Assembly (NCBI RefSeq): GCF_011045215.1
Contig: NZ_CP049201.1
DNA: 64,000 nucleotides
Reading direction: 5' to 3' (one strand)
Origin: Escherichia coli
Lineage (GTDB): Bacteria > Pseudomonadota > Gammaproteobacteria > Enterobacterales > Enterobacteriaceae
Below, piece after piece: positions 1,752 to 63,691 of the stretch. Numbering within the stretch: position 1 is the first letter of the stretch; the number at the start of each line of letters is the position of its first letter. The notes below the pieces were generated by a model, which worked only from the letters and a program-made list of their open reading frames with translations, was not told where the DNA came from and searched no databases. A program made the translations under genes and the position numbers.

Positions 1752-1906
1752 AACGCATACCATTAACAATGTAAAAAACACAGCACTGAAACTGTAACCG
1801 GCCAGGCATTACAGAATGAAGAAAATAAAGTGTCCGCAACCAGATTCTTCACGAAAATTCGTCAGTGCTGATAAAGCTATGACTCATCAGTTTTACTGGA
1901 GAACGG

Positions 1907-1982
1907 TGGCGGGAATCGAACCCACATCATCAGCCTGGAAAGCTGAGGTAATAGCCATTATACGATACCCGCATACTGTGCT
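1907..1982 (-). tRNA. tRNA-Gly(UCC)-like pseudo-tRNA; acceptor 3' strand not complementary
   Basis: Minus strand reads GCGGGTATCGTATAATGGCTATTACCTCAGCTTTCCAGGCTGATGATGTGGGTTCGATTCCCGC, near-identical to E. coli glyT through D, anticodon (loop TTTCCAG) and T arms, but then continues CACCGTTCTCCA, which cannot pair with the 5' GCGGGTA. Confidence 0.4.
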
Positions 1983-5682: not shown

Positions 5683-6732
5683 TTACCCGAGCACGCCGGT
5701 TGCAAAGGCGTGATCAAGAAAACGAAAAATTAAATCAACCTGGGAACCATGCTTTTCTTCGAACGCCAGCGGATCCGCATGAAGTTCGTTGTGATGTTCC
5801 CGGCATAACGGTAGCGTGAAAATATCGTGGGATTTTGTTCCCATTCCGCCCTGACCATGACCAATCAGGTGATGGGGATCGTCGGCTGGCTTACCACAGC
5901 ACGCACACGGCTGTGTCTTTACCCAGCGTGTATATTTCTCATTTATCCAACGGCGACGTTTAGGTCGCTTCATGAAAGATTCCGGAGACTCCGGATCTAC
6001 GGCAATGCTGACCACCGTCTTTTCCTGTGGTGCGTTCTGTTGCTGGTGGGCGTGAGGTGGTAGCGCAATATTTTTTGTGCGCTGCTTCAGTATGCTGGTA
6101 GCTGTCTGCTCTCCCGGTACGATGTCGCTTTCGCGGTATACTGAGTGGATTTTTTCACCCGGAAGCTTCAGGATTCGACGCGCCATATTTTCGGTCATGG
6201 CATCCACTACATCATTTACAGCAGCCCAGCAGTACAGTTCAGCCAGCGATAATTCCCGCTCCTGTGTACCGCTTATTGCGTGACGTATGACGTCAATCAT
6301 CCAGGCTGTCAGATTTTGTTGAGCAAGCTGCCCGAGTGATTCGGAGGTCTGGTCACGCAGCTGGTTGTCGCAGTGCCAGCACAACACCATCGCGCCGGTG
6401 CCGTAACGATGTATGACGGTTTCACTGTGATGATAGTCACCATGAGGCCACTGGCAGGATTTGACATGACGCAACAGCCAGTCAGACAGTGCGCCAGCGC
6501 CGCCAGCAGCACGAATCACCCGCTCATCGCTGAAAAATGGCAGTAATGATTTATCTTCCGCCAGCGGCTGGCGAACAGCAGGAACAACTCCGAACGGCAG
6601 ACCGCGCATGCTTTTCGGTTCCGGTTCCACCAGCACTCGAGGGTTATGAAATACCTGCATGGATTCACGACCAGGCTTAAGGACCACCAGCCCGAGTTCC
6701 GGTACCGGAACAGGTCGAAGTAATACCCGCAC
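5683..6732 (-). CDS. DUF968/YdfU-like protein with C-terminal HNH-type motif
   Basis: 349 aa, same length as Qin YdfU; C-terminal CACCGKPADDPHHLIGHGQGGMGTKSHDIFTLPLCREHHNELH. Confidence 0.75.
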   Translation of the reverse strand: MRVLLRPVPVPELGLVVLKPGRESMQVFHNPRVLVEPEPKSMRGLPFGVVPAVRQPLAEDKSLLPFFSDERVIRAAGGAGALSDWLLRHVKSCQWPHGDYHHSETVIHRYGTGAMVLCWHCDNQLRDQTSESLGQLAQQNLTAWMIDVIRHAISGTQERELSLAELYCWAAVNDVVDAMTENMARRILKLPGEKIHSVYRESDIVPGEQTATSILKQRTKNIALPPHAHQQQNAPQEKTVVSIAVDPESPESFMKRPKRRRWINEKYTRWVKTQPCACCGKPADDPHHLIGHGQGGMGTKSHDIFTLPLCREHHNELHADPLAFEEKHGSQVDLIFRFLDHAFATGVLG

Positions 6733-7492: not shown

Positions 7493-7648
7493 TTACTCCT
7501 CAGATTCGTAAGCTGTGAAGACAGCGACCTCCGTCTGGCCGGTTCGGATTCGTACCTCGCAGAGGTCTTTCCTCATTACCAGTGCCGTCACTATGACGGT
7601 TAAACAGATGACGATCAGGGCGATTAACATCGCCTTTTGCTGCTTCAT
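7493..7648 (-). CDS. hok: Hok/Gef-family type I toxin
   Basis: MKQQKAMLIALIVICLTVIVTALVMRKDLCEVRIRTGQTEVAVFTAYESEE is near-identical to remembered HokD; AAGGAG 7 nt upstream. Confidence 0.85.
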   Translation of the reverse strand: MKQQKAMLIALIVICLTVIVTALVMRKDLCEVRIRTGQTEVAVFTAYESEE

Positions 7649-7705
7649 AGCCTGCTTCTCCTTGCCTTTCGGCACGTAAGAGGCTAACCTACGTTTGTGT
7701 AGCAT
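7493..7705 (-). CDS. mok-like overlapping reading frame
   Basis: In-frame N-terminal extension (MLHKRRLASYVPKGKEKQA) upstream of the hok ATG, as in hok/mok/sok loci. Confidence 0.45.
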   Translation of the reverse strand: MLHKRRLASYVPKGKEKQAMKQQKAMLIALIVICLTVIVTALVMRKDLCEVRIRTGQTEVAVFTAYESEE

Positions 7706-8102
7706 AGATTGGGCCTCAGATTAATGTTAAGCGTCTTGCCGGACGCGTAATGTTAACTGGGGCTTTTCTCTGTCTGCCTTACAGTGGCATGCCCGAGGCA
7801 GACAGCCTCAGGCACCCGCAACAATCTTACCGACACCGATAAGAAAACGCTATTTTTTATTGCCAGAACCTTCTGCCCAGGCTAATGTATCCGCGTCAGA
7901 ACGGCGCAATGCGCTCGCCTGAGATACGTTTACTTGTCATTGGTGGCAACAGATAACGGCAATTGTTGTTTCTGTTTGTTTCCTTCAAAAACCCCGGACC
8001 ATCAATCCGGGGTTTTTGTTTGTTATCCCCAGCGGCAAATCGAATACACCATCAGCGCCACCGCCATCGCAATTCCTGCCGTTGTGAATGCTTCAGGCCA
8101 GG

Positions 8103-15231: not shown

Positions 15232-15399
15232 TTCTTTATTTTACAGAATCATACCGCCGCAAGGCGGTTTTTTTTACCTTTTACGTATTCATAATGTTGA
15301 CTTTTGTTCACCCAAAGAGAACAATGTATTCCATCAAAGCACAACGGTGCGACAGGTCTTAGTTCCGCTACCCCGGCGTTAAGGGGAAATGAGGTCAAC

Positions 15400-16903: not shown

Positions 16904-17539
16904 CTACGGATTGCTGCTCAATGCTCTACCTATCTCTTCTTCAGATGGGGGCGGTATATAGTCATCATTGCGTTCAAATTTAAAGCGCGAATCACATTTC
17001 AGGCATTTAGAAATATGGAACTTATCATGCTCACCAATTTCAACAGGTTGAAGTATTGCTATTACACCATGCTGATAGCAATTGGGACAGGCATAGTGAA
17101 AACATGTGTCTTCTTCGTCGAGGCTGTTCCTGAAAGCATAGACAAAATGCCCAAAACCAGTTTTGTGTATCGTATAGCATTCAAGTTTTCGATTACGCTC
17201 GTCAATTTCATGACATTTTTACTTAAGCAAGAGTATTTCCTCGTACTGAAGCGCGAGCGTTTTCGCTAGCTCTGCGTTCTGTATTTGTAAGTCTGCCAGT
17301 TGGCGACGCATTTCGTAGACAGCCTTTTCACGTTCAGATTGGCTTTTTGCATCAAGTATTACCTGTAATAAATCAATCGAGACTTTAATTGCCGTTATTG
17401 ATGAAGTTATTCCAGATAGCATTCTTAACTCTCTTTGTTGTTGGGGTATCCGGATTATACAAAATTCTTGTTGTTGGGGAACAACAGGAACCACCTCGCC
17501 TGATGTGGTTAAAAGCAGGCACACAACACGAAAGCGCAC
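16904..17539 (-). pseudogene. coiled-coil/zinc-ribbon gene interrupted by an in-frame TAA
   Basis: Track ORF 17219..17539 ends at TAA (17219-17221); the same frame continues 104 codons to TAG at 16904-16906 with no ATG/GTG start and CPNC...CLKC zinc-ribbon motifs. Confidence 0.4.
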
Positions 17540-17984
17540 GGCGAAGGTTTCTTTTCCTTAGAAGGCTTGTCGTTAGATTTCTTCGGCCGTGCGCTTCCGG
17601 TTGTGGCAATCCGCGAAATGGCGCGGCGGTAAGTATGGCGGGGTTATCCTTACCCCCACTGGTAGCACCGGGTTGTCAGGTTGACCATACGCTTAAGTGA
17701 CAACCCCGCTACAACATCTCCATGTTGAGGCTTGTGTGAGACCTTTGGCGGCATCAGTTTAATTGCTGGCTGATGTCCGCCCTTTTTAAAGTGAATTTTG
17801 TGATGTGGTGAATGCGGCTAAGCGCACGCGGAACAGTTAAAAGACCATTTGTTCTCCGTATCAATACTTATGGGTAGGTACTTGCAGGCGGGTCCCTGTA
17901 TTCCGGCGTTAATTGTTAACTGGTTAACGTCACCTGGAGGCACCAGGCACCGCATCACAAAATTCATTGTTGAGGACGCGATAA

Positions 17985-18172
17985 TGGAAACGTTATTACT
18001 CAATTCCACTACGCCTGAGACTCGTTTTGAAATTGGCGTTATCACTGGCGATAAAAACTTTATTGAGGATGCCATTAATCAGATAAAGCATGAGCCAGAT
18101 TCATCAAATGAGATATGCATTGCTTCAATGCTGGCCCGTTTACGCCCGACGCAAAAAGGATGCTGGCAATGA
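17985..18172 (+). CDS. hypothetical small protein
   Basis: 62-aa ORF from internal ATG with GAGGA 7 nt upstream. Confidence 0.35.
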
Positions 18173-18372
18173 ATACCACATTTGCACTTGTTCTGACGGT
18201 TTTTCTTGTTTCCGGTGAACCAGTTGACATGGTTATTGGCGTATACAGCTCAATGAAAGAATGCATGGCTGCCGCAGATGAACAGAAAATTCCCGGTAAC
18301 TGTTATCCGGTCGATAAAGTTATTCACCAGGATAATAACGAAATCCCGGCAGGACTTAAAACAGCGCCGTAA
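18169..18372 (+). CDS. small protein with N-terminal signal/lipoprotein-like segment
   Basis: 67 aa (MNTTFALVLTVFLVSGEP...); ATG overlaps upstream TGA. Confidence 0.4.
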   Translation: MNTTFALVLTVFLVSGEPVDMVIGVYSSMKECMAAADEQKIPGNCYPVDKVIHQDNNEIPAGLKTAP

Positions 18373-18449: not shown

Positions 18450-20885
18450 ATGAGCACTGATAAAGAAGAATTTGCATTATATTGTGAAGCAAAAAATGAC
18501 AAAGTCAGAAAACGCCTTGGAATTAAAGGTGGTTTTTACTGGACTACAGCAAAAAAATTATCTGTTGCCATCTCCCGCTGCATTACCGCAATGGATGACA
18601 ACGATTATGATGAAGACGACTTTAAAAAACCCGTCCGCGTCCATTTACCCGTTGTGAATGACCTTCCACCTGAAGGCGTGTTTGATACTGAATTCTGTAA
18701 CCGTTACGAAAAAGGCGGGGAAGATGGCATCACAATGGTATTTATCGCGCCCTCACCCTCTGCGCAGGACAAACCAGCCAACATTGACAATACCAACGTC
18801 AACGGCGAAGACATGACTGAGATTGAGGAGAACATGCTCCTGCCGGTTTCAGGTCAGATTCTGCCTGTTCGATGGCTGGCACAGCACGGCAGCAAAAAAC
18901 CGATCACACACGTTTCGCGGGACGAACTGCGCGCATTACATAACGCACAGGATGAAAAACTTCCCGCCGTTACCGCGCTGGCTATCTCAAATAAAGCAGC
19001 GCAACTCGAACCGCTGGAGATTCGCGATCTCCACAAACTGGTGCGAGACACTGACAAAGTTTTCCCCGCCCCCGTAAATTCGGACCTGGGACTGATAACC
19101 TCTTTTATCGAAGCATACCTAGACGCCGACTACACCGATCGCGGTCTGCTGACAAAAGAGTGGATGAAAGGAAATCGTGTTTCGCGTATCACCCGTACGG
19201 CTTCCGGTGCAAATGCCGGTGGCGGGAACAAAACCGATCGCAATCCGAATTTAGTACACACCTTCGATACGCTGGATGTGGAGATTGCAACAGCCACACT
19301 TCCGATGGATTTTAATATTTATGAAATTCCGGGCAGCGTTTATCGTCGCGCAAAAGAAATCGTCCTGAAAAGAGAAAGTCCGTTCAAAGAATGGTCCGCA
19401 GCACTTCGCGCAACCCCGGGTATTCTGGATTATTCCCGCGCCGCTATTTTTGCACTTATCCGGAGCGCTCACCCTGAGTTTTATCACTACCCGGGACGCC
19501 TTCAGGGGTATATCAACGCCCACTTAACGGAGACTGATCACGAGAACCCCAGCAAGGAAACTCTCACTGCTGCACGACATACACCGGAAAAAGACATCCT
19601 GGAAGAAGTTAACCGCGAACTGGCTGCTGAACGCGAAACAGAAGAAGAAAAAAATAATGAGGAAAAATCACAACCGTCTGACGCAATGGCAGATGAACAG
19701 GCAACGACTGAAGCAATGGGACAGGATACAACTGAATATCGCCAGGACACACAATCGCTGGATACTCAGGCACAGATAAATCCGGTTAATCAGGTAAAAG
19801 TTACCGCTGACGAAGTAAACAAAATTATGCAGGCAGCCAATATCAACCAGCCTGATGCCGACAAAATACTGGCAGTCCATCGCGGTGAATTCGTTGACGG
19901 AATTAGCGACCCGAATGATCCGAAATGGGTTAAGGGGATTGAAACCCGCGATTCTGTGAACCAGAACCAGCCCGAATCGGAACAAAACAGCCAAAATGCG
20001 TTACAAAACGAGCCAGAAACGAAACAGCCTGAACCAGAAGAGCAACAAGAACCGGAAAAAGTCTGCACCGCCTGCGGTCAGACCGGCGGCGGCAACTGTC
20101 CTGACTGTGGCGCGGTGATGGGCGACGCAACATACCAGGAAACATTCGATGAAAAAAATCAGGCTGAAGTTCAGGAAGATGATCCGGAGGAAATGGAAGG
20201 CGCTGAACATCCGAACAATGAGAATGCTGGTAACGATCAGTATCACGCCAGCGATAGTGAAACTGGCGAGGCGACAGATCCCTTAATTAATGTGAACGGT
20301 CATCACGAAATCACATCCACCAGCAGTACGTGTGACCATCTAATGATCGACCTTGAAACCATGGGAAAAAATCCTGATGCCCCGATTATCTCAATAGGTG
20401 CAATATTTTTCGATCCGCAAACCGGAGATATGGGACCGGAATTTAGTAAGACTATAGATCTGGAAACAGCTGGCGGAGTCATTGATCGTGACACCATTAA
20501 ATGGTGGCTTAAGCAATCACGCGAGGCGCAATCTGCCATTCTGACCGATGAAATCCCGTTAGATGATGCACTGTTGCAATTGCGGGAATTTATCGACGAA
20601 AACTCCGGCGAATTTTTTGTTCGTGTCTGGGGAAATGGAGCCAGCTTCGACAACGTAATTTTACGCCGTTCATATGAACGGCAGGGGATCCCCTGCCCGT
20701 GGCGTTACTACAACGATCGCGATGTACGCACAATTCTTGAACTGGGAAAAGCCATAGACTTCGATGCCAGAACGGCTATTCCATTCGAAGGCGTACCCCA
20801 CAATGCGCTGGACGATGCCCGTCACCAGGCAAAACAAGTTTCAGCTATCTGGCAAAACCTGATCCCGAGTCAGGCTGATTTTTAA
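18450..20885 (+). CDS. large phage exonuclease-like protein (C-terminal DnaQ/DEDDh-like 3'-5' exonuclease, acidic linker, zinc ribbon)
   Basis: 811 aa; C-terminus LMIDLETMG...WGNGASFDN...HNALDDARH fits DEDDh motifs; CTACGQTGGGNCPDCG zinc ribbon; E/Q-rich low-complexity centre. Confidence 0.7.
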   Translation: MSTDKEEFALYCEAKNDKVRKRLGIKGGFYWTTAKKLSVAISRCITAMDDNDYDEDDFKKPVRVHLPVVNDLPPEGVFDTEFCNRYEKGGEDGITMVFIAPSPSAQDKPANIDNTNVNGEDMTEIEENMLLPVSGQILPVRWLAQHGSKKPITHVSRDELRALHNAQDEKLPAVTALAISNKAAQLEPLEIRDLHKLVRDTDKVFPAPVNSDLGLITSFIEAYLDADYTDRGLLTKEWMKGNRVSRITRTASGANAGGGNKTDRNPNLVHTFDTLDVEIATATLPMDFNIYEIPGSVYRRAKEIVLKRESPFKEWSAALRATPGILDYSRAAIFALIRSAHPEFYHYPGRLQGYINAHLTETDHENPSKETLTAARHTPEKDILEEVNRELAAERETEEEKNNEEKSQPSDAMADEQATTEAMGQDTTEYRQDTQSLDTQAQINPVNQVKVTADEVNKIMQAANINQPDADKILAVHRGEFVDGISDPNDPKWVKGIETRDSVNQNQPESEQNSQNALQNEPETKQPEPEEQQEPEKVCTACGQTGGGNCPDCGAVMGDATYQETFDEKNQAEVQEDDPEEMEGAEHPNNENAGNDQYHASDSETGEATDPLINVNGHHEITSTSSTCDHLMIDLETMGKNPDAPIISIGAIFFDPQTGDMGPEFSKTIDLETAGGVIDRDTIKWWLKQSREAQSAILTDEIPLDDALLQLREFIDENSGEFFVRVWGNGASFDNVILRRSYERQGIPCPWRYYNDRDVRTILELGKAIDFDARTAIPFEGVPHNALDDARHQAKQVSAIWQNLIPSQADF

Positions 20886-20949
20886 TGTTCAACCCCGGTC
20901 GTCGCCCACTAGCTATAGTGGTGGCGACCATGATTAGCGAACGACGCTC

Positions 20950-21198
20950 ATGGCAAGACTTATTCTGCTCACTGAGTGGGCAAAAGAGGAATTCAGCGAT
21001 CCGGTCCCTACTCCGGGCACGTTAAGTAAATACGCTAAAGCCGGAATGATATTTCCTCTCCCCAAAAAAGTTGGAAGACACTGGCGAGTGGATCCACGAG
21101 CTCGCTTTGTCGGAATGGTAAACAAGCCGGAGGTGATCGCCACAGATCACCCTGCTTTGAAGAGGATACTGGAAGATGGCGCGCCCGCGAAAATATAA
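20950..21198 (+). CDS. xis: excisionase (lambda Xis-like)
   Basis: 82 aa, overlaps int start as in lambda; GMIFPLPKKVGRHWRVDPRARFVG resembles lambda Xis. Confidence 0.7.
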   Translation: MARLILLTEWAKEEFSDPVPTPGTLSKYAKAGMIFPLPKKVGRHWRVDPRARFVGMVNKPEVIATDHPALKRILEDGAPAKI

Positions 21199-22306
21199 AA
21201 CCGAAGTTCCGGGACTATCTCCGTATTTTGACAAAAGAAATAACAAAGTTTACTGGCGTTACAGGCATCCCATAACAGGCAAAAATCACGGTCTCGGCAG
21301 TATTGACCAGAAACTGGCAGAAACTATTGCAGCAGAAGCGAACAGCCGTCTTGCCAGGCAGCAAATGGAACAAATGCTCAGTCTGCAGGAGAAAATTATT
21401 AATGATACCGGCGGTTCATCAACCGTTTCCATTTTTCTGAATAATTACAGAAAAATTCAACAGGAAAGATATGAAAACGGAGAGATCAAACTCAACACGC
21501 TGAAACAAAAAGCGGCCCCTCTCAGGGTATTTGATGAACGTTTTGGCACCAGACCGTTAGATGCCATAACTGTAAAAGATGTGGTATCGGTGCTGGAAGA
21601 GTACAAGGCCAGAGGACATAACAGAATGGGGCAAATTTTCAGGAAGGTACTGATCGATGTTTTCCGGGAAGCTCAGCAAACAGGCGATGTTCCGCCAGGC
21701 TTTAACCCTGCAGAATCGGCAAAAAAACCGCAGGTGCGGATATCAAGACAGCGACTGACTTTTGATGAGTGGATGATGATTTATAACGCAGCGGAAAAGG
21801 ATGGTTACTTTTTACAGCGCGGCATGCTGCTGGCACTGATGACAGGCCAGCGCCTTTCAGATATTTGCAAAATGCAATTTTCGGATATCCGGGATGGTTA
21901 TCTTCATGTCGAACAGCAAAAAACAGGAACCCGGATTGCCATCCCTCTTGCTCTGCGTTGCAATAAATTAAATCTCACCCTGGATGATGTGGTGTCATCC
22001 TGTCGCGATTGCGTTCTTAGTCCGTGGCTATTGCACCACCATCATGCGAAAGGGACAGCCAAGCGCGGCGGGATGGTTAAGCCAGCAACGTTAACAGTTG
22101 CATTTAAAAAAGCGCGGGATTCTGTGGATTACAACTGGCGTGCTAATGGCACCCCACCCTCTTTCCATGAGCAGAGATCTTTATCAGAGCGATTGTTCAG
22201 AGAGCAGGGAATTGATACCCAAATTTTGCTGGGTCATTCGAATCAAAAAATGACCGATATTTACAACGATGCACGCGGCAAGGAGTGGAAAAAACTGGTC
22301 ATTTGA
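21176..22306 (+). CDS. int: tyrosine integrase (lambda Int family)
   Basis: 376 aa; LTFDEWMMIYNAA...LALMTGQRLSDICKMQFSDIRDGYLHVEQQKTGTRIAIPLAL aligns with remembered lambda Int catalytic region. Confidence 0.9.
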   Translation: MARPRKYKTEVPGLSPYFDKRNNKVYWRYRHPITGKNHGLGSIDQKLAETIAAEANSRLARQQMEQMLSLQEKIINDTGGSSTVSIFLNNYRKIQQERYENGEIKLNTLKQKAAPLRVFDERFGTRPLDAITVKDVVSVLEEYKARGHNRMGQIFRKVLIDVFREAQQTGDVPPGFNPAESAKKPQVRISRQRLTFDEWMMIYNAAEKDGYFLQRGMLLALMTGQRLSDICKMQFSDIRDGYLHVEQQKTGTRIAIPLALRCNKLNLTLDDVVSSCRDCVLSPWLLHHHHAKGTAKRGGMVKPATLTVAFKKARDSVDYNWRANGTPPSFHEQRSLSERLFREQGIDTQILLGHSNQKMTDIYNDARGKEWKKLVI

Positions 22307-22313
22307 TGACCAG

Positions 22314-22347
22314 TTTTGCAGAGGAGTTTTGCAGAGATTTTGCAGAG
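22314..22347. repeat. three direct TTTTGCAGAG repeats between int stop and ompW stop (att arm region)
   Basis: Copies at 22314-22323, 22327-22336, 22338-22347. Confidence 0.6.
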
Positions 22348-22351
22348 AAAA

Positions 22352-22990
22352 TTAAAAGCGGTACCCGGCAGAGAACATAAACACCCACGGATCCAGTCGT
22401 ACCGCGTCTTTCACGGGTGTTCCGTTAGATTTATAGCTGGCTGTGGTATCGATATCCATGTACCACACTGACATGTTAACCAACCAGTCACGGTTAATCA
22501 GATAATCAACCCCCACCTGCCCGGCAGCTCCCCAGGAATCTTTCAGACTGAGATCGGAAAGCCCCGCCTCTTTGCCATGATCGTTAAATCCATTATCAAA
22601 GAAGGTGGTGTAGTTAATACCTGCCCCAACATAAGGACGGAATTTGCTGCTGGCATCACCAAAATACCACTGCGCCATCAGTGTTGGCGGCAGATGATGA
22701 ACGGTTGCAATATCGCCGGTCGCCCGGGTGCCGATTTTATGGCGGAACGGCGTCGCTGCCAGTAATTCCACACCAATGTTGTCGGTCGCCATATAAGTAA
22801 ACGTCAGGCCCAGTTGAGTGTTATTGGTCACGCTGAATCCACCCAGACTTCCTAACGTACCACCAGCACCTTCTGTTGGACGTACGGTTGCAGAACCTGC
22901 ACGCATAAAAAATTCGCCTGCTTCATGCGCAAAGGCACTGCCAGAGAGAAGAGTTGTTACTGCCAAAGCCGCCACTGTTAACTTTTTCAT
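22352..22990 (-). CDS. ompW: outer membrane protein W
   Basis: 212 aa with signal peptide; matches E. coli OmpW. Confidence 0.95.
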   Translation of the reverse strand: MKKLTVAALAVTTLLSGSAFAHEAGEFFMRAGSATVRPTEGAGGTLGSLGGFSVTNNTQLGLTFTYMATDNIGVELLAATPFRHKIGTRATGDIATVHHLPPTLMAQWYFGDASSKFRPYVGAGINYTTFFDNGFNDHGKEAGLSDLSLKDSWGAAGQVGVDYLINRDWLVNMSVWYMDIDTTASYKSNGTPVKDAVRLDPWVFMFSAGYRF

Positions 22991-23346
22991 ATCCGCTCCG
23001 TCGTTATGGTTATAAAAACGTGACGAATATACCTACATTGGAGTAACAAATGATCCTACATAGATCACATTACATATGATAATTCACCATTTATTGATCT
23101 GGATTAATTTAGAAGTTGCATTGAGAATCCTGGTTAACGTGATTTAAATCAATTTTTAAATATTTTCGCTACGCAAATATTAACTCGTTCGCCACTTGCC
23201 GCGGTTTGCCCACGCCTGAAGGCCAGCAATTACCTCCGCTTTACAAAGATATGCTTTTCCATACAAGACCTGATGCTGCCACCCGAGGCTTAACCAGGGT
23301 ACAATTGCCCGCTAATTAACACCTGCATAAAACTCAAGGAGAGTGC

Positions 23347-24090
23347 ATGTCTATCACGGCGCAGTCCGTATACCGTGACACCGGAAATTTCTTCCGTAAT
23401 CAATTTATGACCATTCTGTTGGTATCGTTGCTATGTGCGTTTATCACAGTGGTGTTAGGGCATGTTTTCTCACCCAGTGATGCACAGCTTGCGCAGCTCA
23501 ATGACGGCGTGCCCGTTAGCGGCAGTAGTGGGTTGTTCGACCTGGTTCAGAATATGTCACCGGAACAGCAACAAATTTTGCTGCAGGCTTCAGCGGCGTC
23601 CACTTTTTCAGGATTAATCGGTAACGCCATTCTCGCCGGAGGCGTAATATTAATTATCCAGCTGGTGTCTGCGGGTCAGAGAGTCAGTGCGCTGCGAGCT
23701 ATTGGTGCCAGTGCGCCGATATTGCCAAAGTTATTTATTCTGATTTTTCTGACTACCCTTTTAGTACAGATTGGCATCATGCTGGTGGTCGTTCCGGGAA
23801 TTATCATGGCCATATTACTGGCCCTGGCACCGGTGATGTTGGTACAGGACAAAATGGGCGTTTTTGCCTCGATGCGTAGCAGTATGCGGCTGACTTGGGC
23901 GAATATGCGTCTGGTGGCACCCGCAGTACTGAGCTGGTTGCTGGCAAAAACACTGTTGCTGCTTTTTGCCTCTTCTTTTGCCGCATTAACCCCGGAAATT
24001 GGTGCCGTACTGGCGAACACCTTGAGCAACCTGATTTCAGCCATATTGCTCATCTATCTGTTCCGCCTGTATATGTTGATTCGCCAATAA
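23347..24090 (+). CDS. yciC: UPF0259 inner membrane protein YciC
   Basis: 247-aa polytopic membrane ORF in conserved position. Confidence 0.9.
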
Positions 24091-24119
24091 CCTTAAGCAT
24101 TTGATTACGGAATCGTAAA

Positions 24120-24659
24120 ATGAAGCAGTTTCTTGATTTTTTACCGCTGGTTGTCTTTTTCGCGTTTTACAAGATTTATGACATCTATGCGGCTACTGCG
24201 GCGCTGATCGTCGCCACGGCGATTGTGCTTATCTATAGCTGGGTTCGCTTTCGTAAGGTTGAGAAGATGGCCCTGATCACTTTTGTTCTGGTGGTCGTCT
24301 TCGGTGGCTTGACGCTGTTCTTCCACAATGATGAGTTTATAAAATGGAAGGTTACTGTCATTTATGCCCTGTTTGCGGGTGCCCTGTTAGTCAGCCAATG
24401 GGTGATGAAAAAGCCGCTAATTCAGCGGATGCTGGGTAAAGAACTCACGCTGCCGCAACCGGTATGGTCGAAGCTGAATCTGGCCTGGGCTGTTTTCTTT
24501 ATCCTTTGCGGTCTGGCAAACATCTACATCGCATTCTGGCTGCCGCAAAATATTTGGGTCAACTTTAAAGTCTTTGGCCTGACCGCCCTTACCTTAATCT
24601 TCACATTGTTAAGCGGTATCTATATCTACCGCCACATGCCGCAGGAAGATAAATCCTAA
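24120..24659 (+). CDS. yciB: inner membrane protein YciB (intracellular septation protein A family)
   Basis: 179-aa membrane ORF in conserved synteny. Confidence 0.9.
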
Positions 24660-24763
24660 CCAGACTGCCAGTCCTTCGGGGCTGGCGCTGTATCTCCTCT
24701 GTTCTCCTCAGGAAAATCATAGTAGCATCGCGCCTGTGATTTTCCTTTTAAGTCGGTTTTACC

Positions 24764-25162
24764 ATGTCTACAACACATAACGTCCCTCAGGGCGATCTTG
24801 TTTTACGTACTTTAGCCATGCCCGCCGATACCAATGCCAATGGTGACATCTTTGGTGGTTGGTTAATGTCACAAATGGATATTGGCGGCGCTATTCTGGC
24901 GAAAGAAATTGCCCACGGTCGCGTAGTGACTGTGCGGGTTGAAGGAATGACTTTCTTACGGCCGGTTGCGGTCGGCGATGTGGTGTGCTGCTATGCACGC
25001 TGTGTCCAGAAAGGGACGACATCGGTCAGCATTAATATTGAAGTGTGGGTGAAAAAAGTAGCGTCTGAACCAATCGGGCAACGCTATAAAGCGACAGAAG
25101 CATTATTTAAGTATGTCGCGGTTGATCCTGAAGGAAAACCTCGCGCCTTACCTGTTGAGTAA
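24764..25162 (+). CDS. yciA: acyl-CoA thioesterase YciA
   Basis: 132-aa hotdog-fold thioesterase in conserved position. Confidence 0.9.
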   Translation: MSTTHNVPQGDLVLRTLAMPADTNANGDIFGGWLMSQMDIGGAILAKEIAHGRVVTVRVEGMTFLRPVAVGDVVCCYARCVQKGTTSVSINIEVWVKKVASEPIGQRYKATEALFKYVAVDPEGKPRALPVE

Positions 25163-25201
25163 TAGTCAAAAGCCTCCGGTCGGAGGCTTTTGACTTTCTG
25201 C

Positions 25202-25921
25202 TTACTGAATTTCGGTGGTGCCGTTAATTTTAAACAGGATATTCACCACAATCCCACTGCCTGGCTTACCCGGCTCATAACGCCATCTGCGCATCGCATT
25301 TTTCACCTCACGCTCAAACATGTTCGCAGGCTTGGCTGAGAGGATTTGTACGTTATCCACGCGACCATCCGGCGTGACGTCAAATTTAACTTTAACCTGC
25401 CCTTCAATGCGCAATGCCTGTGCTCGTGCCGGATACTGCGGCTGATTACGGCTTAATGCGCGTGGTCCTGAAGCCACACTGGTAACCGGCTTGCTGGTTG
25501 CAGCCGTTGCTGTACTTGATGTCGGGCGTGCCGGTGTCGTATTTTCAAACGGTGATGCCGGACGCGACTCTACGGGTTTGACATCGCGTTTTGGCTGCTC
25601 CTGTACCTTTTTCACCGGCTTCGGTTTTGGCTTAGGTTTCGGCTTCGGCTTTTCAATGACCACCGGTGCTTCTTTTGGCGGTTCAGGAATCGGCTCAGGT
25701 TCCGGTTCTGGCTCTACCACCGGCTCCGGTGGCGGCTGAACGGCTTGTGGCGGTTCGAGATCAGCAGGCGCAACCATCGTGACAGAAATCGGCTGCGCAG
25801 GCGCAGGTAGTTCAATAACCTGATGTACCGAGGTATAGAGCAGACCCGCCACAACAGCACCATGAATGCAGACCGAAAGTAACGTCGGCCAGGGGAAGCG
25901 GCGAGGTAAATCAAGGGTCAT
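25202..25921 (-). CDS. tonB: TonB energy transducer
   Basis: Track ORF trimmed to [11 protein letters not shown] start; (EP)n and (KP)n proline-rich repeats. Confidence 0.9.
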
Positions 25922-26144
25922 TGAAGTCATAATCATTTCAGTAGAAAAACCAGGTCTCGATTTTAAATGCAAATAGCAATCATATTCAATAAGGCAAGAC
26001 GATCAGGATCAGTGAAAATGTCATTTTTGGCGTAATTGACCTTACTTTATGCATGGTCTTAACAAAGACATCATCTTTCCGTTGCAGATCTTCGCCCTTT
26101 CAAATAACGTACTTTACAACTTTCCCGAACAAGGAGTTGTGCCC

Positions 26145-26441
26145 GTGTTGTATGTTATTTACGCTCAAGACAAAGCTGATAGCCTCGAAAAACGCCTTTC
26201 CGTTCGTCCGGCACATTTAGCACGTTTACAGTTACTGCATGATGAAGGTCGTTTGTTGACAGCTGGTCCAATGCCAGCGGTAGACAGTAACGATCCAGGG
26301 GCTGCGGGATTTACTGGCTCAACCGTTATTGCTGAATTTGAATCGCTGGAAGCAGCTCAGGCCTGGGCCGATGCTGACCCGTACGTAGCGGCAGGAGTCT
26401 ATGAACACGTTTCAGTGAAACCATTTAAGAAAGTGTTCTGA
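26145..26441 (+). CDS. yciI: YciI-like protein
   Basis: GTG start 8 nt after AAGGAG gives the expected 98-aa product. Confidence 0.8.
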
Positions 26442-26741
26442 GTAGAGATCCAATATTTAAGGGCACGGTTTTTGCAACCGTGTTCTTGTTTGGCCTTTCC
26501 TTATAGGTCGGTCATTGCATTCACCACCACAAGCAGATAATAACTTTATCTGTATTTCTTTATATGATGTGAGCATGTTCAGGAAAAATGCCCTTTCCTG
26601 ACGCAGAGTTGCTCACTCAAAACCTTTGATTACTGCAGATAAAGTCATCTACTATTGTTTAACACATTCACGTGTCGCATGTATGTTCAGAAAATGTGCA
26701 CGTTAAGATAATTAAACAAAATTGTGGTTACAGAGGTATCA

Positions 26742-27995
26742 GTGAGTCACTGGGCTACATTCAAACAAACAGCAACAAATTTATGGGTGACCCTACGGCA
26801 CGACATTCTCGCGCTGGCCGTCTTTTTAAATGGGTTGCTTATTTTTAAAACAATCTATGGTATGTCGGTCAATTTGCTTGATATTTTCCATATCAAAGCA
26901 TTTTCAGAGTTGGATCTCTCCTTGCTGGCAAACGCCCCACTATTTATGCTCGGCGTCTTTCTTGTCCTGAACTCCATTGGCTTACTGTTCCGGGCAAAGC
27001 TCGCATGGGCAATCAGTATCATTTTGTTGTTGATAGCGCTAATTTACACCCTGCATTTTTATCCCTGGCTGAAATTTAGTATTGGATTTTGCATTTTTAC
27101 GCTGGTGTTTTTACTGATACTGCGCAAAGACTTCTCCCACAGTAGCGCCGCAGCCGGGACAATTTTTGCATTTATTAGTTTCACGACATTACTGTTTTAC
27201 TCAACCTACGGTGCGCTTTATTTAAGCGAAGGTTTTAATCCGCGAATAGAAAGTTTGATGACCGCGTTCTATTTTTCGATAGAAACCATGTCAACCGTCG
27301 GCTATGGAGATATTGTCCCTGTTTCTGAATCAGCACGATTGTTCACTATTTCGGTCATTATTTCCGGCATTACCGTTTTTGCCACATCTATGACCTCAAT
27401 TTTTGGTCCGCTTATCCGCGGGGGATTCAACAAACTTGTAAAAGGAAACAATCATACAATGCATCGTAAAGATCATTTTATTGTTTGCGGACATTCGATT
27501 CTCGCTATCAATACGATCCTGCAACTGAATCAACGCGGACAAAACGTAACGGTTATCAGCAACTTGCCTGAAGATGATATCAAGCAACTTGAGCAACGCT
27601 TAGGCGATAACGCTGATGTTATCCCCGGTGACAGTAATGACAGTTCAGTATTAAAGAAAGCGGGAATCGATCGTTGCCGGGCCATTCTGGCGCTGAGTGA
27701 TAACGATGCAGATAACGCGTTTGTTGTACTCTCGGCAAAAGATATGAGCAGTGATGTCAAAACAGTTCTCGCCGTCAGTGATAGCAAAAACCTGAATAAG
27801 ATTAAGATGGTACATCCGGATATCATTCTCTCACCGCAACTGTTTGGCAGCGAAATTCTGGCGCGAGTTTTAAATGGTGAAGAGATTAATAATGATATGC
27901 TCGTTTCAATGTTGTTGAACTCAGGTCATGGTATTTTCAGCGATAACGATGAACAAGAAACGAAAGCTGACAGTAAAGAATCGGCGCAAAAATAG
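26742..27995 (+). CDS. kch: voltage-gated potassium channel Kch
   Basis: GTG start (..SHWATFKQ) after GAGGT; pore motif TVGYGD. Confidence 0.9.
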   Translation: MSHWATFKQTATNLWVTLRHDILALAVFLNGLLIFKTIYGMSVNLLDIFHIKAFSELDLSLLANAPLFMLGVFLVLNSIGLLFRAKLAWAISIILLLIALIYTLHFYPWLKFSIGFCIFTLVFLLILRKDFSHSSAAAGTIFAFISFTTLLFYSTYGALYLSEGFNPRIESLMTAFYFSIETMSTVGYGDIVPVSESARLFTISVIISGITVFATSMTSIFGPLIRGGFNKLVKGNNHTMHRKDHFIVCGHSILAINTILQLNQRGQNVTVISNLPEDDIKQLEQRLGDNADVIPGDSNDSSVLKKAGIDRCRAILALSDNDADNAFVVLSAKDMSSDVKTVLAVSDSKNLNKIKMVHPDIILSPQLFGSEILARVLNGEEINNDMLVSMLLNSGHGIFSDNDEQETKADSKESAQK

Positions 27996-28049
27996 AGTTT
28001 AAAGACGGAAGAGTAAACTTATTGGGCACCGCAATGGTGCCCAGTACAT

Positions 28050-28223
28050 TTAGATATTGTAGATCGCAAACAATAACGAGTTACGCTGTTTGTTTAGAAT
28101 GCACTTCCTGATGCTGTGGATACGCATATTTCGGCGCGATTGCCCCTCAAGCCAACGCGATTTACGTCGGCTAGCCTGACGCTGCATGCGCCAGCGCCCC
28201 ACTTCCGTTCTACTCCGCTTCAT
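28050..28223 (-). CDS. yciY: small protein YciY
   Basis: 57-aa internal-start version (MKRSRTEV...) of track ORF. Confidence 0.5.
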   Translation of the reverse strand: MKRSRTEVGRWRMQRQASRRKSRWLEGQSRRNMRIHSIRKCILNKQRNSLLFAIYNI

Positions 28224-28365
28224 GTTAACTACTCTATGCAATAACAGAATGGTCATTATACCCCCGCCCCCGACGCTGACCAGTGGTTTTCCCGCGTTTT
28301 TATTTGCCAGATGAATCCATATGCGTAAACTCATAACAATGCGCTTTCAAAAGGATTTCTAATCT

Positions 28366-30190
<1,825 letters not shown>

Positions 30191-47186: not shown

Positions 47187-47271
<85 letters not shown>

Positions 47272-47430
47272 TCACTTTCAAAAGTACCTGAACTCTCAAG
47301 CGAATCCGTAAATAAATATTCTGCCCAAGCGGGGAAGGACGAGAAGCTTCGACCAAGGTTCGACTCGAGCGCCAGCGAGAGAGCGTTGCCGCAGGCAACG
47401 ACCCGAAGGGCGAAGCGCGCAGCGCTGAGT

Positions 47431-47449
47431 AATCCTTCCTCCACCACCA
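47431..47449 (+). repeat. direct repeat of the tRNA-Tyr 3' end (tyrT downstream repeat unit)
   Basis: AATCCTTCCTCCACCACCA matches the tRNA 3' terminus with one mismatch; an AAGGTTCGAcTC partial copy lies at about 47357. Confidence 0.6.
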
Positions 47450-63287: not shown

Positions 63288-63691
63288 CAGTTATATCTCC
63301 TCCGATGACGGAAATCGGGGGAGATAATATAAATTCCTGCTTATTGTATTTCTTCATACTACCTGGACAGGTCGTTAATCAGAATTGCGAGCCTGTACCA
63401 CAACCTGCACGAATCCACTGCAACAGCTGTTGAAAAGCCGGAATGTACTCTTCATTGCAAACATTTCAGGGATGAAGTGAAGATGAATTGAGACGTAGTA
63501 TCCACACCAAGCCGGCGTTATCCGGTGAGGCGCAATGTTGCGGGGGCTTTATCCCTGGTGGCATTGGTTGCTGGAAAGAGAAAACCCCCGCACGTTGAGA
63601 GGTAAAACCTGACAACAGAACGGGGGCTAATCTTGAAACCAGACACTTCAAGAATAGCCGCAAAATGTTGTCATTACAACAAGGCGGCTAT

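Follow-up and report, generated by a model that had tools for sequence, protein, structure and literature searches.

What does a small perfect inverted repeat do in the untranslated interval of a prophage operon, and is it a functional element at all? The window considered here is the whole analysed stretch of 64,000 nucleotides, part of an Escherichia coli chromosome with a lambdoid prophage. Within it, the first-pass annotation had singled out a 445-bp gap (17540-17984) with no convincing ORF and a hairpin that might be a regulatory site or a small RNA. This gap lies inside a Qin-type dicBF operon. On the + strand, a gene for a CI/DicA-type repressor (PF07022) is followed by a DUF1391/YdfA-like gene and several small ORFs, then by the gap, and then by dicB, a DUF1482/YdfD-like gene, a gene for an 811-aa exonuclease VIII-type protein, and the integrase gene. 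The base at 17984 is the A of the dicB ATG, and the gap is the untranslated leader of dicB. The lack of coding potential was borne out, with no Pfam match in the gap and with indels in one of its loops (the H3 loop described below) whose lengths are not divisible by three. The small RNA DicF, however, is encoded inside the gap, and the small ORFs that had been noticed upstream of the exonuclease gene are dicB itself (PF05358) and the YdfD-like gene. Few bacterial small RNAs have been known for longer than DicF, and the dicBF operon serves as a model of the effects of cryptic prophages on host division, metabolism, and phage resistance.

The repeat is found where it had been reported, with arms GGGTTGTCA (17670-17678) and TGACAACCC (17698-17706) around a loop of 19 nt. 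By itself it is only marginally significant: dinucleotide shuffles of the 445-bp region contain on average 0.06 such repeats, and 4.6% of the shuffles contain at least one. Nine-mer inverted-repeat seeds in the whole window number 57, when 8.5 are expected. Folding of single sequences gives z scores from -1.35 (124 nt around the domain described below) to -1.9; the minimum free energy (MFE) structure of the window reproduces the junction of this domain, whereas that of the K-12 sequence does not give the consensus fold. Because the repeat is marginal when taken alone and the single-sequence fold is not significant, the reality of the hairpin must be judged from related sequences.

Viral contigs were scanned with a degenerate pattern of the loop, and the resulting 120 loci, representing 77 distinct versions, are the basis of the fold summarised in Table 1. 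Among 74 distinct homologues, six of the eight pairs of the stem (H4) show pair-preserving changes on both sides, with arms such as GGGTAACCA/TGGTTACCC (locus L033), GGGTCGTCA/TGACAGCCC, and GAGTTGCCA/TGGCAAC. The two loop-proximal pairs are invariant, but the retrieval pattern had fixed them, as it had most bases of the near-invariant loop. The stem is thus conserved and covarying, and the absence of conservation that the first-pass annotation had named as evidence against its hairpin was not found. What did not survive is the idea of a free-standing 9-bp unit. The ninth pair, G17670:C17706, competes with the pair C17627:G17670 of a neighbouring helix (P2), and the hairpin is one helix of a larger conserved RNA domain, hereafter element A. 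The hairpin is very probably helix H4 of this 116-nt four-helix junction in the dicBF leader, a domain that corresponds to the 5' extension found in long DicF of K-12 (190 nt).

Table 1. Features of the dicBF leader and of its surroundings in the window. Helices are given as their two strands.
Feature	Position	Strand	Evidence or remark
Candidate operon promoter (dicBp-like)	15297..15325	+	Consensus scan only; just past the terminator of the CI/DicA-like repressor gene
Predicted RNase III substrate duplex, 5' arm	17522..17542	+	Inverted repeats I1, I6; conserved in K-12
Predicted RNase III substrate duplex, 3' arm	17586..17605	+	Shares its last 6 nt with the 5' strand of P0
Element A, conserved four-helix junction	17600..17715	+	Covariance model R1, 141 bits, E 7e-43
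P0, closing helix of element A	17600-07 with 17708-15	+	Covariation
H1, hairpin of element A	17611-15 with 17622-26	+	Varies only on one side
P2, helix of element A enclosing H3	17627-30 with 17667-70	+	Covariation
Candidate pseudoknot, 5' strand GUAUGG	17633..17638	+	Pairs with CCAUAC of the H4 loop
H3, hairpin of element A	17640-43 with 17654-57	+	Covariation
Flagged hairpin, helix H4 with its 19-nt loop GGUUGACCAUACGCUUAAG	17670..17706	+	Inverted repeat; 6/8 pairs changed on both sides
H4, hairpin of element A	17671-78 with 17698-705	+	Covariation
Candidate pseudoknot, 3' strand CCAUAC	17685..17690	+	Within the H4 loop
Variable linker with putative RNase E site for the DicF 5' end	17716..17732	+	41% identity to K-12
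DicF sRNA variant with intrinsic terminator	17733..17787	+	RF00039, 45.4 bits, E 1.5e-8
Element B, STnc100-like dicB leader	17798..17960	+	Closed by a 13-bp stem (17798-17810 / 17948-17960); RF02076 below gathering score
dicB, cell-division inhibitor, first gene after the leader	17984..18172	+	PF05358, 91.4 bits; RefSeq annotation of homologues

A number of observations support this fold. First, in the alignment of 75 versions made with R1, which is fitted to the model and includes many close relatives, 96.4% of the cells are paired and 14 of the 36 pairs are compensatory. A shuffle control gave 4.8 +/- 1.4 compensatory pairs, with none of 500 replicates reaching the observed 14, and sliding the partners by 1-3 columns lowered pairing to 31-57%. 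Second, a MAFFT version of the alignment gave very similar values (96.1% of cells paired, 12 of 36 pairs compensatory). Third, every one of the six helices except H1 shows compensatory changes; the H3 stem, e.g., changes from CGGGG/CCCCG to CUGGG/CCCAG, CAGGG/CCCUG, CGAGG/CCUCG, and CCCGGG/CCCGGG. Fourth, loci retrieved by the DicB protein, independently of the loop pattern, contain element A in eight cases of the ten that this small retrieval provided (132-146 bits). The loops are invariant while the helices covary, and the pyrimidine-rich UCCU of the H3 loop is kept in 60 of the 75 versions in spite of the variation in loop length. The orientation of the RNA can also be deduced, since G-U pairs are frequent at two positions of P0 (39 and 30 sequences) and would read as A-C mismatches on the opposite strand, implying that the dicF/dicB strand is the one that folds. 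The pairing of GUAUGG with the H4 loop is a probable pseudoknot suggested by the alignment: its positions are 99.8% paired, two of the pairs were fixed by the retrieval pattern, and one pair only covaries (U:A to C:G in P1-type sequences).

These patterns bear on whether there is an RNA element here at all. The hairpin could be due to chance, be a site in DNA, either an operator or a 'linker' for recombination between phage modules, act as a terminator, or belong to a small protein gene, and the marginal statistics of the repeat, the mosaic junctions that fall within element A, and the short hypothetical ORFs annotated across some of its copies would agree with one or other of these readings. 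Yet neither compensatory changes in nearly all helices nor G-U pairs restricted to one strand are expected of them; the H3-loop indels break any reading frame, element A occurs as a single copy in the window when searched with R1, neither strand has a T-run after the stem, and ARAGORN finds nothing. We regard this whole group of readings as disfavoured and extremely improbable. Several specific identities were considered and rejected. The H4 stem is followed by CCGCTACAAC, with no T-run, and the scan for intrinsic terminators reports only the DicF hairpin in the gap. The RfaH ops/JUMPStart element (GGCGGTAGnnTG) corresponds in the window to GGCGGTAAGTATG, which does not give an exact core with T6 and the C3:G8 pair, and P7 has GGCGGC at this place, a change compensated in the RNA helix P2 (U:A to C:G). 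Neither ARAGORN nor the Rfam tRNA models give a tRNA or tmRNA. By eye, GGUAAGUAUGGCGGGG..CCCC looks similar to 5S rRNA helix IV, but Rfam lends this no support.

Downstream of element A the leader contains a variant of DicF. The RF00039 match (17733-17782) covers the full length of the model and stays 2.6 bits below its gathering score of 48, so that a default Rfam scan missed DicF, as standard Rfam annotation would; at gathering thresholds Rfam reports nothing in the gap. The variant retains the UUUGGCGGYAUCAGUUU core and the terminator hairpin with its U-run (stem GGCGG at 17747-51 and CCGCC at 17777-81, T-run at 17783-87; the hairpin of the terminator scan spans 17750-17777). The expected synteny is also present, with dicB 197 nt downstream and the DUF1391/YdfA-like gene and the CI-type repressor gene upstream. 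The suggestion of a small RNA in the gap was thus right in part: there is one, but the flagged hairpin is not DicF, as it ends at 17706, 27 nt upstream of the start of the 52-nt DicF model match and wholly outside it. The Rfam scan that had been proposed as a check has the same mixed outcome, since it contains DicF as a sub-threshold match and no family for the domain of the hairpin. Between DicF and dicB, element B resembles STnc100 (RF02076; 17784-18003, 33.9 bits for a gathering score of 47), with relatives scoring 37-43 bits; its closing stem is kept in 26 loci, without compensatory changes.

Comparison with K-12 shows that conservation in the leader peaks at element A (89.7% identity over 17600-17715), followed by the hairpin 5' of it (77%), the DicF-dicB segment (76%), and DicF (72%); the linker between element A and DicF (41%) and the sequence further upstream (26%) are far more divergent. 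Sequence homologous to element A fills some 137 nt before the K-12 DicF core, where R1 gives a match of 148 bits (L002:2748-2870). In K-12, two DicF species have been described, one of 53 nt whose 5' end needs RNase E and one of 190 nt whose 5' end needs RNase III, the latter being lost in an rnc mutant and building up upon RNase E inactivation (PMC10448788). The same work, which cites Faubladier 1990 for the long DicF, saw no internal promoter in the K-12 dicBF operon. Published probes were aimed at DicF. Counting 190 nt back from the DicF terminator places the 5' end of the long species about 4 nt before P0, at approximately L002:2747/2748, i.e., 17595/17596 in the window, a position transferred by homology from K-12 and accurate to a few nucleotides. 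It would fit the RNase III site reported at '813/814' in K-12 (PMC10448788), if one assumes a promoter start about 75 nt before ydfA. From its sequence, long DicF would thus consist of a few nucleotides, element A, the 17-nt linker, and DicF.

The window sequence offers a plausible substrate for this cut. Immediately upstream of element A, an imperfect duplex of about 20 bp is predicted (Table 1), which dominates the MFE structure of the unprocessed RNA (z = -3.8) and whose 3' arm contains the predicted 5' end of long DicF. In the MFE structure of the processed RNA, P0, H1, P2/H3, and H4 form, followed by the DicF terminator. In the phage PhiR40_1, the equivalent place is occupied by a duplex with another sequence, which also overlaps P0. 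A second published RNase III product, a 72-nt DicF (PMC5069750), has a 3' end that, when transferred to the window, falls at about 17806, inside the 13-bp closing stem of element B.

Element A is not confined to dicBF operons. Of 5426 complete E. coli genomes, 4311 (about 80%) carry it over 80% or more of its length, with a median of two copies and a maximum of eight per genome, and 506 of the places are on plasmids. Outside E. coli it was confirmed in E. albertii, a Citrobacter, and one MAG only. The taxonomic range is poorly sampled because the pattern used to scan genome contigs, with 15 specified bases, was too loose and returned mostly chance matches in GC-rich genomes (120 loci, of which 100 were searched with R1 and 4 were genuine). 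Searches of phage genomes with blastn revealed the approximately 116 nt in two other settings, both devoid of dicF and dicB. The first includes Stx2c, cdtI, and CPS-53-type phages; in PhiR40_1, e.g., element A is located some 390 nt past cI, ahead of yfdP/yfdQ. The second includes P1, P7, D6, and SJ46, where it is 3' of the C1-controlled ban promoter/operator and 5' of tRNA genes, beginning some 40 nt after the ban promoter in P1 and P7. In locus L256 and in the Stx phages POCJ13 and 75/02, mosaic junctions occur inside element A. Some records annotate short hypothetical ORFs across it. There is no Rfam family for element A (window, P1, P7, and an Stx2c phage, with a permissive E <= 10 in the window), none of the phage or RefSeq records examined annotates it as an RNA, and a text search of the available papers found none of its sequence strings. 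The DicF papers examined treat the 5' extension as precursor and do not describe a conserved fold or an occurrence without DicF. The dicBF leader, DicF, and its long precursor are already known, and the DicF of the window belongs to an established family as a variant below its threshold. Judging by the available libraries, what is new is that the flagged hairpin belongs to a covariation-supported four-helix domain that occurs independently of DicF and is more widespread and better conserved than DicF.

No gene neighbour is common to the three contexts, which suggests a host partner. Element A might then be a structured RNA acting in trans, with either the whole RNA of about 190 nt or a fragment of about 137 nt, freed by the RNase E cut that also releases DicF, binding and titrating a host protein or RNA early after derepression. 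Its conservation above that of DicF, its occurrence without DicF, its presence in most complete E. coli genomes and on plasmids, and the combination of invariant loops with covarying helices are all in line with such a role, and the UCCU of the H3 loop resembles an anti-Shine-Dalgarno-like seed. The complementarity of the H4 loop to element B, on the other hand, is not accompanied by correlated variation. On balance, we consider a role in trans unlikely.

The downstream flank shows a different regularity. In almost all of the approximately 45 downstream variants listed (66 unique flanks), a terminator-like hairpin with a T-run follows P0 within 15-110 nt, and the terminator sequences are unrelated between contexts (the DicF type, the Stx2c/CPS-53 type, and that of P1, GCCCAtcttcgGGTGGGCGTTTTTTT). 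This opens the possibility that nascent element A controls elongation in cis, either by modifying RNA polymerase as the put RNA of HK022 does or by suppressing the adjoining terminator, and thereby sets the proportion of short RNA, either DicF or the 190-nt form, to transcripts that read on into dicB, the exonuclease gene, and int. Several facts agree with this: 1) the position upstream of a terminator recurs in three contexts; 2) operon genes follow the terminator each time, from dicB to int, from yfdP/Q to exo, and the tRNA genes, tciABC, and ban; 3) element A is in the leader of the operon in P1/P7 and in the CPS-53-type PhiR40_1; 4) in the few early-left operons checked, no N-type antiterminator was seen, whether by Pfam (window) or in ORF lists and annotations (L005, L248, L010); and 5) the DicF terminator is the only strong one on the + strand from the promoter-like site to the end of the exonuclease gene, according to the terminator scan. 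There is no conserved alternative pairing of element A with the variable terminators, which fits a mechanism directed at the polymerase. But as long as the polymerase has not reached the terminator, the 5' strand of P0 should be tied up in the upstream duplex, and yet P0 covaries. In K-12, the main ydfA-containing transcript stops at the DicF terminator, a read-through product being seen only with RNase E inactivated, and no transcripts extend past ydfD (PMC10448788). Some natural variants also fit poorly. In loci L255 and L256, the whole interior is lost and the P0 strands are joined as a mini-hairpin, GGTTGTGGC-AATCA-GCTACAAC, before a DicF variant and dicB, so that terminator and dicB persist without it (this deletion form is absent from the 5426 complete E. 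coli genomes), and in L010 and L115 element A stands directly before an ORF, without terminator. The fold, finally, is not that of put, which has two stems and about 70 nt in total (PMC9378689). Control of elongation is the main rival of the model that we prefer below, although it seems to us rather unlikely.

A riboswitch-like attenuator would also look like this, with several helices meeting at a junction, a pseudoknot, invariant nucleotides in junction and loops, and a terminator close behind. Element A would then be the aptamer for a metabolite or ion and the terminator the expression platform. Against it, the free variation of terminators and linkers leaves no conserved helix that could do the switching. 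Element A has no match to an Rfam riboswitch even at E <= 10, it lies mid-operon in Qin-type phages, the downstream genes have no metabolic theme, and some copies lack the terminator. This makes a riboswitch very unlikely.

Our preferred model, which we hold tentatively and at somewhat less than even chances, is that element A acts post-transcriptionally, as the 5'-terminal folded domain of an RNA excised from the polycistronic early transcript. About 4 nt before P0, RNase III would cut the duplex that 17522-17542 forms with 17586-17605, and the cut would free the 5' strand of P0 and allow the junction to close. The compact 5' domain would then shield the monophosphorylated 5' end, leaving the variable linker single-stranded, and RNase E would cut this linker to give a DicF of 53-55 nt and an element-A fragment of about 137 nt. 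The near-invariant interior loops probably dock a host factor. Three arguments lead us to favour a post-transcriptional role. First, P0 covaries although the upstream duplex should hold it during transcription. Second, the natural deletion in L255 and L256 keeps exactly P0. Third, element A can head an ordinary ORF, as in L010 and L115. The predicted structures point in the same direction, as the unprocessed MFE pairs the duplex and the processed one forms P0, suggestive of a conformational switch, and element A is 5'-proximal in P1 and P7. Several facts weigh against this 5'-domain model: a plain hairpin suffices to protect a 5' end, the adjacency of a terminator in nearly all variants is more directly explained by a co-transcriptional role, and the single-sequence folding statistics given above are weak. 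Moreover, an RNA whose four-way junction carries a pseudoknot and a 19-nt loop that hardly varies ought to have a specific partner, which the model does not name.

A broader proposal takes element A as a new class of functional phage RNA, one that either reprograms the polymerase at a terminator, as a new analogue of put, or binds a protein, with DicF being just one of several interchangeable 3' 'payloads'. We regard this as possible but doubtful. If it is true, whether as a new antiterminator or as an autonomous functional RNA, the importance of element A rises, and most E. coli genomes would harbour the new RNA class, in lambdoid prophages without N and in P1-type phage-plasmids. The better-conserved module of the long transcript is the precursor part and not DicF; it has a complex fold and is common to phages without DicF, including P1. 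This raises the questions of what limits the output of DicF and DicB after derepression, why an intrinsic terminator precedes dicB and sits in the ban leader of P1, and whether temperate coliphages without N manage such a terminator by RNA.

How does element A compare with known systems? The closest is DicF/long DicF of the K-12 Qin prophage, where the operon has the same order: a CI/DicA-like repressor gene, a ydfA-like gene, a long UTR with dicF, dicB, and a ydfD-like gene (see PMC5069750 for a further source on long DicF and dicBF). STnc100 (RF02076) resembles the DicF-dicB segment and not the flagged hairpin, and the same segment precedes terB/tciA in P7 and D6. The C4/a1b1 RNAs (RF01695, RF03163; immI of P1/P7) are also phage RNAs processed from an operon transcript upstream of a division inhibitor, icd in their case and dicB here. 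A C4-like antisense RNA was suggested by a c4-a1b1 match upstream of element A and by the blastn results with P1, and we reject it on several grounds: the match is at chance level (12.3 bits, E 4.2), the P1 match lies in the ban-operon leader and not in immI, and the H4-loop variants UUAAG/CUGAG show no correspondence with the variable GCTNNGCG in element B. The C4 model itself (RF01695) has no match at E <= 10 in 17300-18200, and genuine C4 (80-84 bits) and isrK copies occur elsewhere in the same phages.

Two further comparisons concern the beginning of early phage transcripts. In the leader of the lambda N mRNA, an early-left duplex is cut by RNase III, which alters the fate of the downstream RNA and relieves the translational repression of N. 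The dicBF leader shares with it a long, here predicted, RNase III duplex in an early-left leader and a proposed change in the fate of the RNA that follows. What lies beyond the putative dicBF cut, however, is a conserved folded domain with an sRNA, and no ORF adjoins it. The put sites of HK022 (putL and putR) encode antiterminator RNAs that act in cis, and their suppression of terminators depends on the zinc-binding domain of the beta-prime subunit of RNA polymerase. They are stem-loops with a triplex, two of them in about 70 nt (PMC9378689). A search with R1 of HK022 20000-29000, a stretch that may not contain the put sites, gave no match. Like put, element A is a structured RNA of temperate coliphages found in an early operon without N, between the early promoter and the terminators, and both have invariant nucleotides, consistent with a partner in the host machinery. 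They differ in architecture, for element A spans 116 nt and has a four-way junction and a pseudoknot, and in number, with one copy per phage instead of two.

Element A, the conserved 116-nt four-helix RNA domain upstream of DicF, exists in a natural variant in which the approximately 100-nt interior is cleanly absent (L255:1249-1270 and L256:1251-1272, two of the retrieved homologous loci). There the closing helix P0 is reduced to a small hairpin made of its two strands joined together, and a DicF-like terminator and dicB still lie downstream. Interior-deletion variants of this type were found in none of 5426 complete E. coli genomes. In NC_025434.1 (POCJ13) and NC_029120.1 (75/02 Stx), positions 6407-6659, homology to the window starts abruptly within the loop of hairpin H4, at about 17685, which indicates that element A is also a point at which phage modules are joined by mosaic recombination; the table lists a further such site. 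The loop of hairpin H3 ranges from 9 to 17 nt among versions, 60 of 75 of which retain a pyrimidine-rich UCCU motif that is reminiscent of anti-Shine-Dalgarno-like seeds. Three loci (L033, L075, and L105) have a terminator-like long hairpin some 30-110 nt downstream of element A, whose loop contains a Shine-Dalgarno sequence and an ATG, and the short ORF starting there crosses the 3' arm and the T-run.

The DicF copy of the window scores 45.4 bits against an Rfam gathering score of 48, and would therefore be missed by standard annotation pipelines. Its sequence departs from that of K-12 DicF within the segment reported to base-pair with ftsZ, and its variant hairpin interior, UUAAUUGCUGGCUGAUGU, was found again in several viral contigs (L001, L027, L053, and L095). 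The dicB leader that follows is closed by a conserved 13-bp stem, where the RNase III 3' end of the published 72-nt DicF would be expected, and the enclosed interior is highly variable. This module resembles Rfam STnc100 at 34-43 bits, under the gathering score of 47, and also lies upstream of terB/tciA in P7 and D6 and of isrK-C4 in one viral contig.

On the other side of element A, the predicted RNase III duplex adjoins a broken ORF antisense to the dicBF transcript. Strain C5 encodes at the same place an intact hypothetical protein of 211 aa (L001:3505-4140), K-12 has no counterpart of the gene, and Pfam found no domain in the fragment.

Coordinates of the RNA features, the broken ORF, and the additional junction site
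Feature	Location	Strand	Remark
H3 loop	window 17644-17653, plus homologues
Broken ORF	window 17040-17539	-	106-aa fragment and smaller pieces
Further mosaic-junction site in element A	L256:1248-1276
DicF copy	window 17733-17787	+
STnc100-like dicB leader	window 17784-18003	+
STnc100-like module copies	L004:2501-2616 (P7), L003:3844-3964 (P1), L010:2062-2184
sok antitoxin RNA	window 7643-7817	-	Rfam, 109 bits
rdlD antitoxin RNA	window 63579-63644	-	Rfam, 91 bits
tRNA, then RtT RNA	window 47187-47449	+	Rfam, 129 bits
Weak tRNA-like match	window 1902-1972	-	Rfam, 36 bits
C4 antisense RNA and isrK (a1/b1-type)	L248:1970-2158, L005:1039-1227, L010:1793-1981	-

Elsewhere in the window, the sok, rdlD, tRNA/RtT, and tRNA-like matches are at the Rfam gathering level. 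Phages with element A also have genuine copies of C4 and isrK upstream of an antirepressor-like gene, and this set is an immI-like module, distinct from element A.
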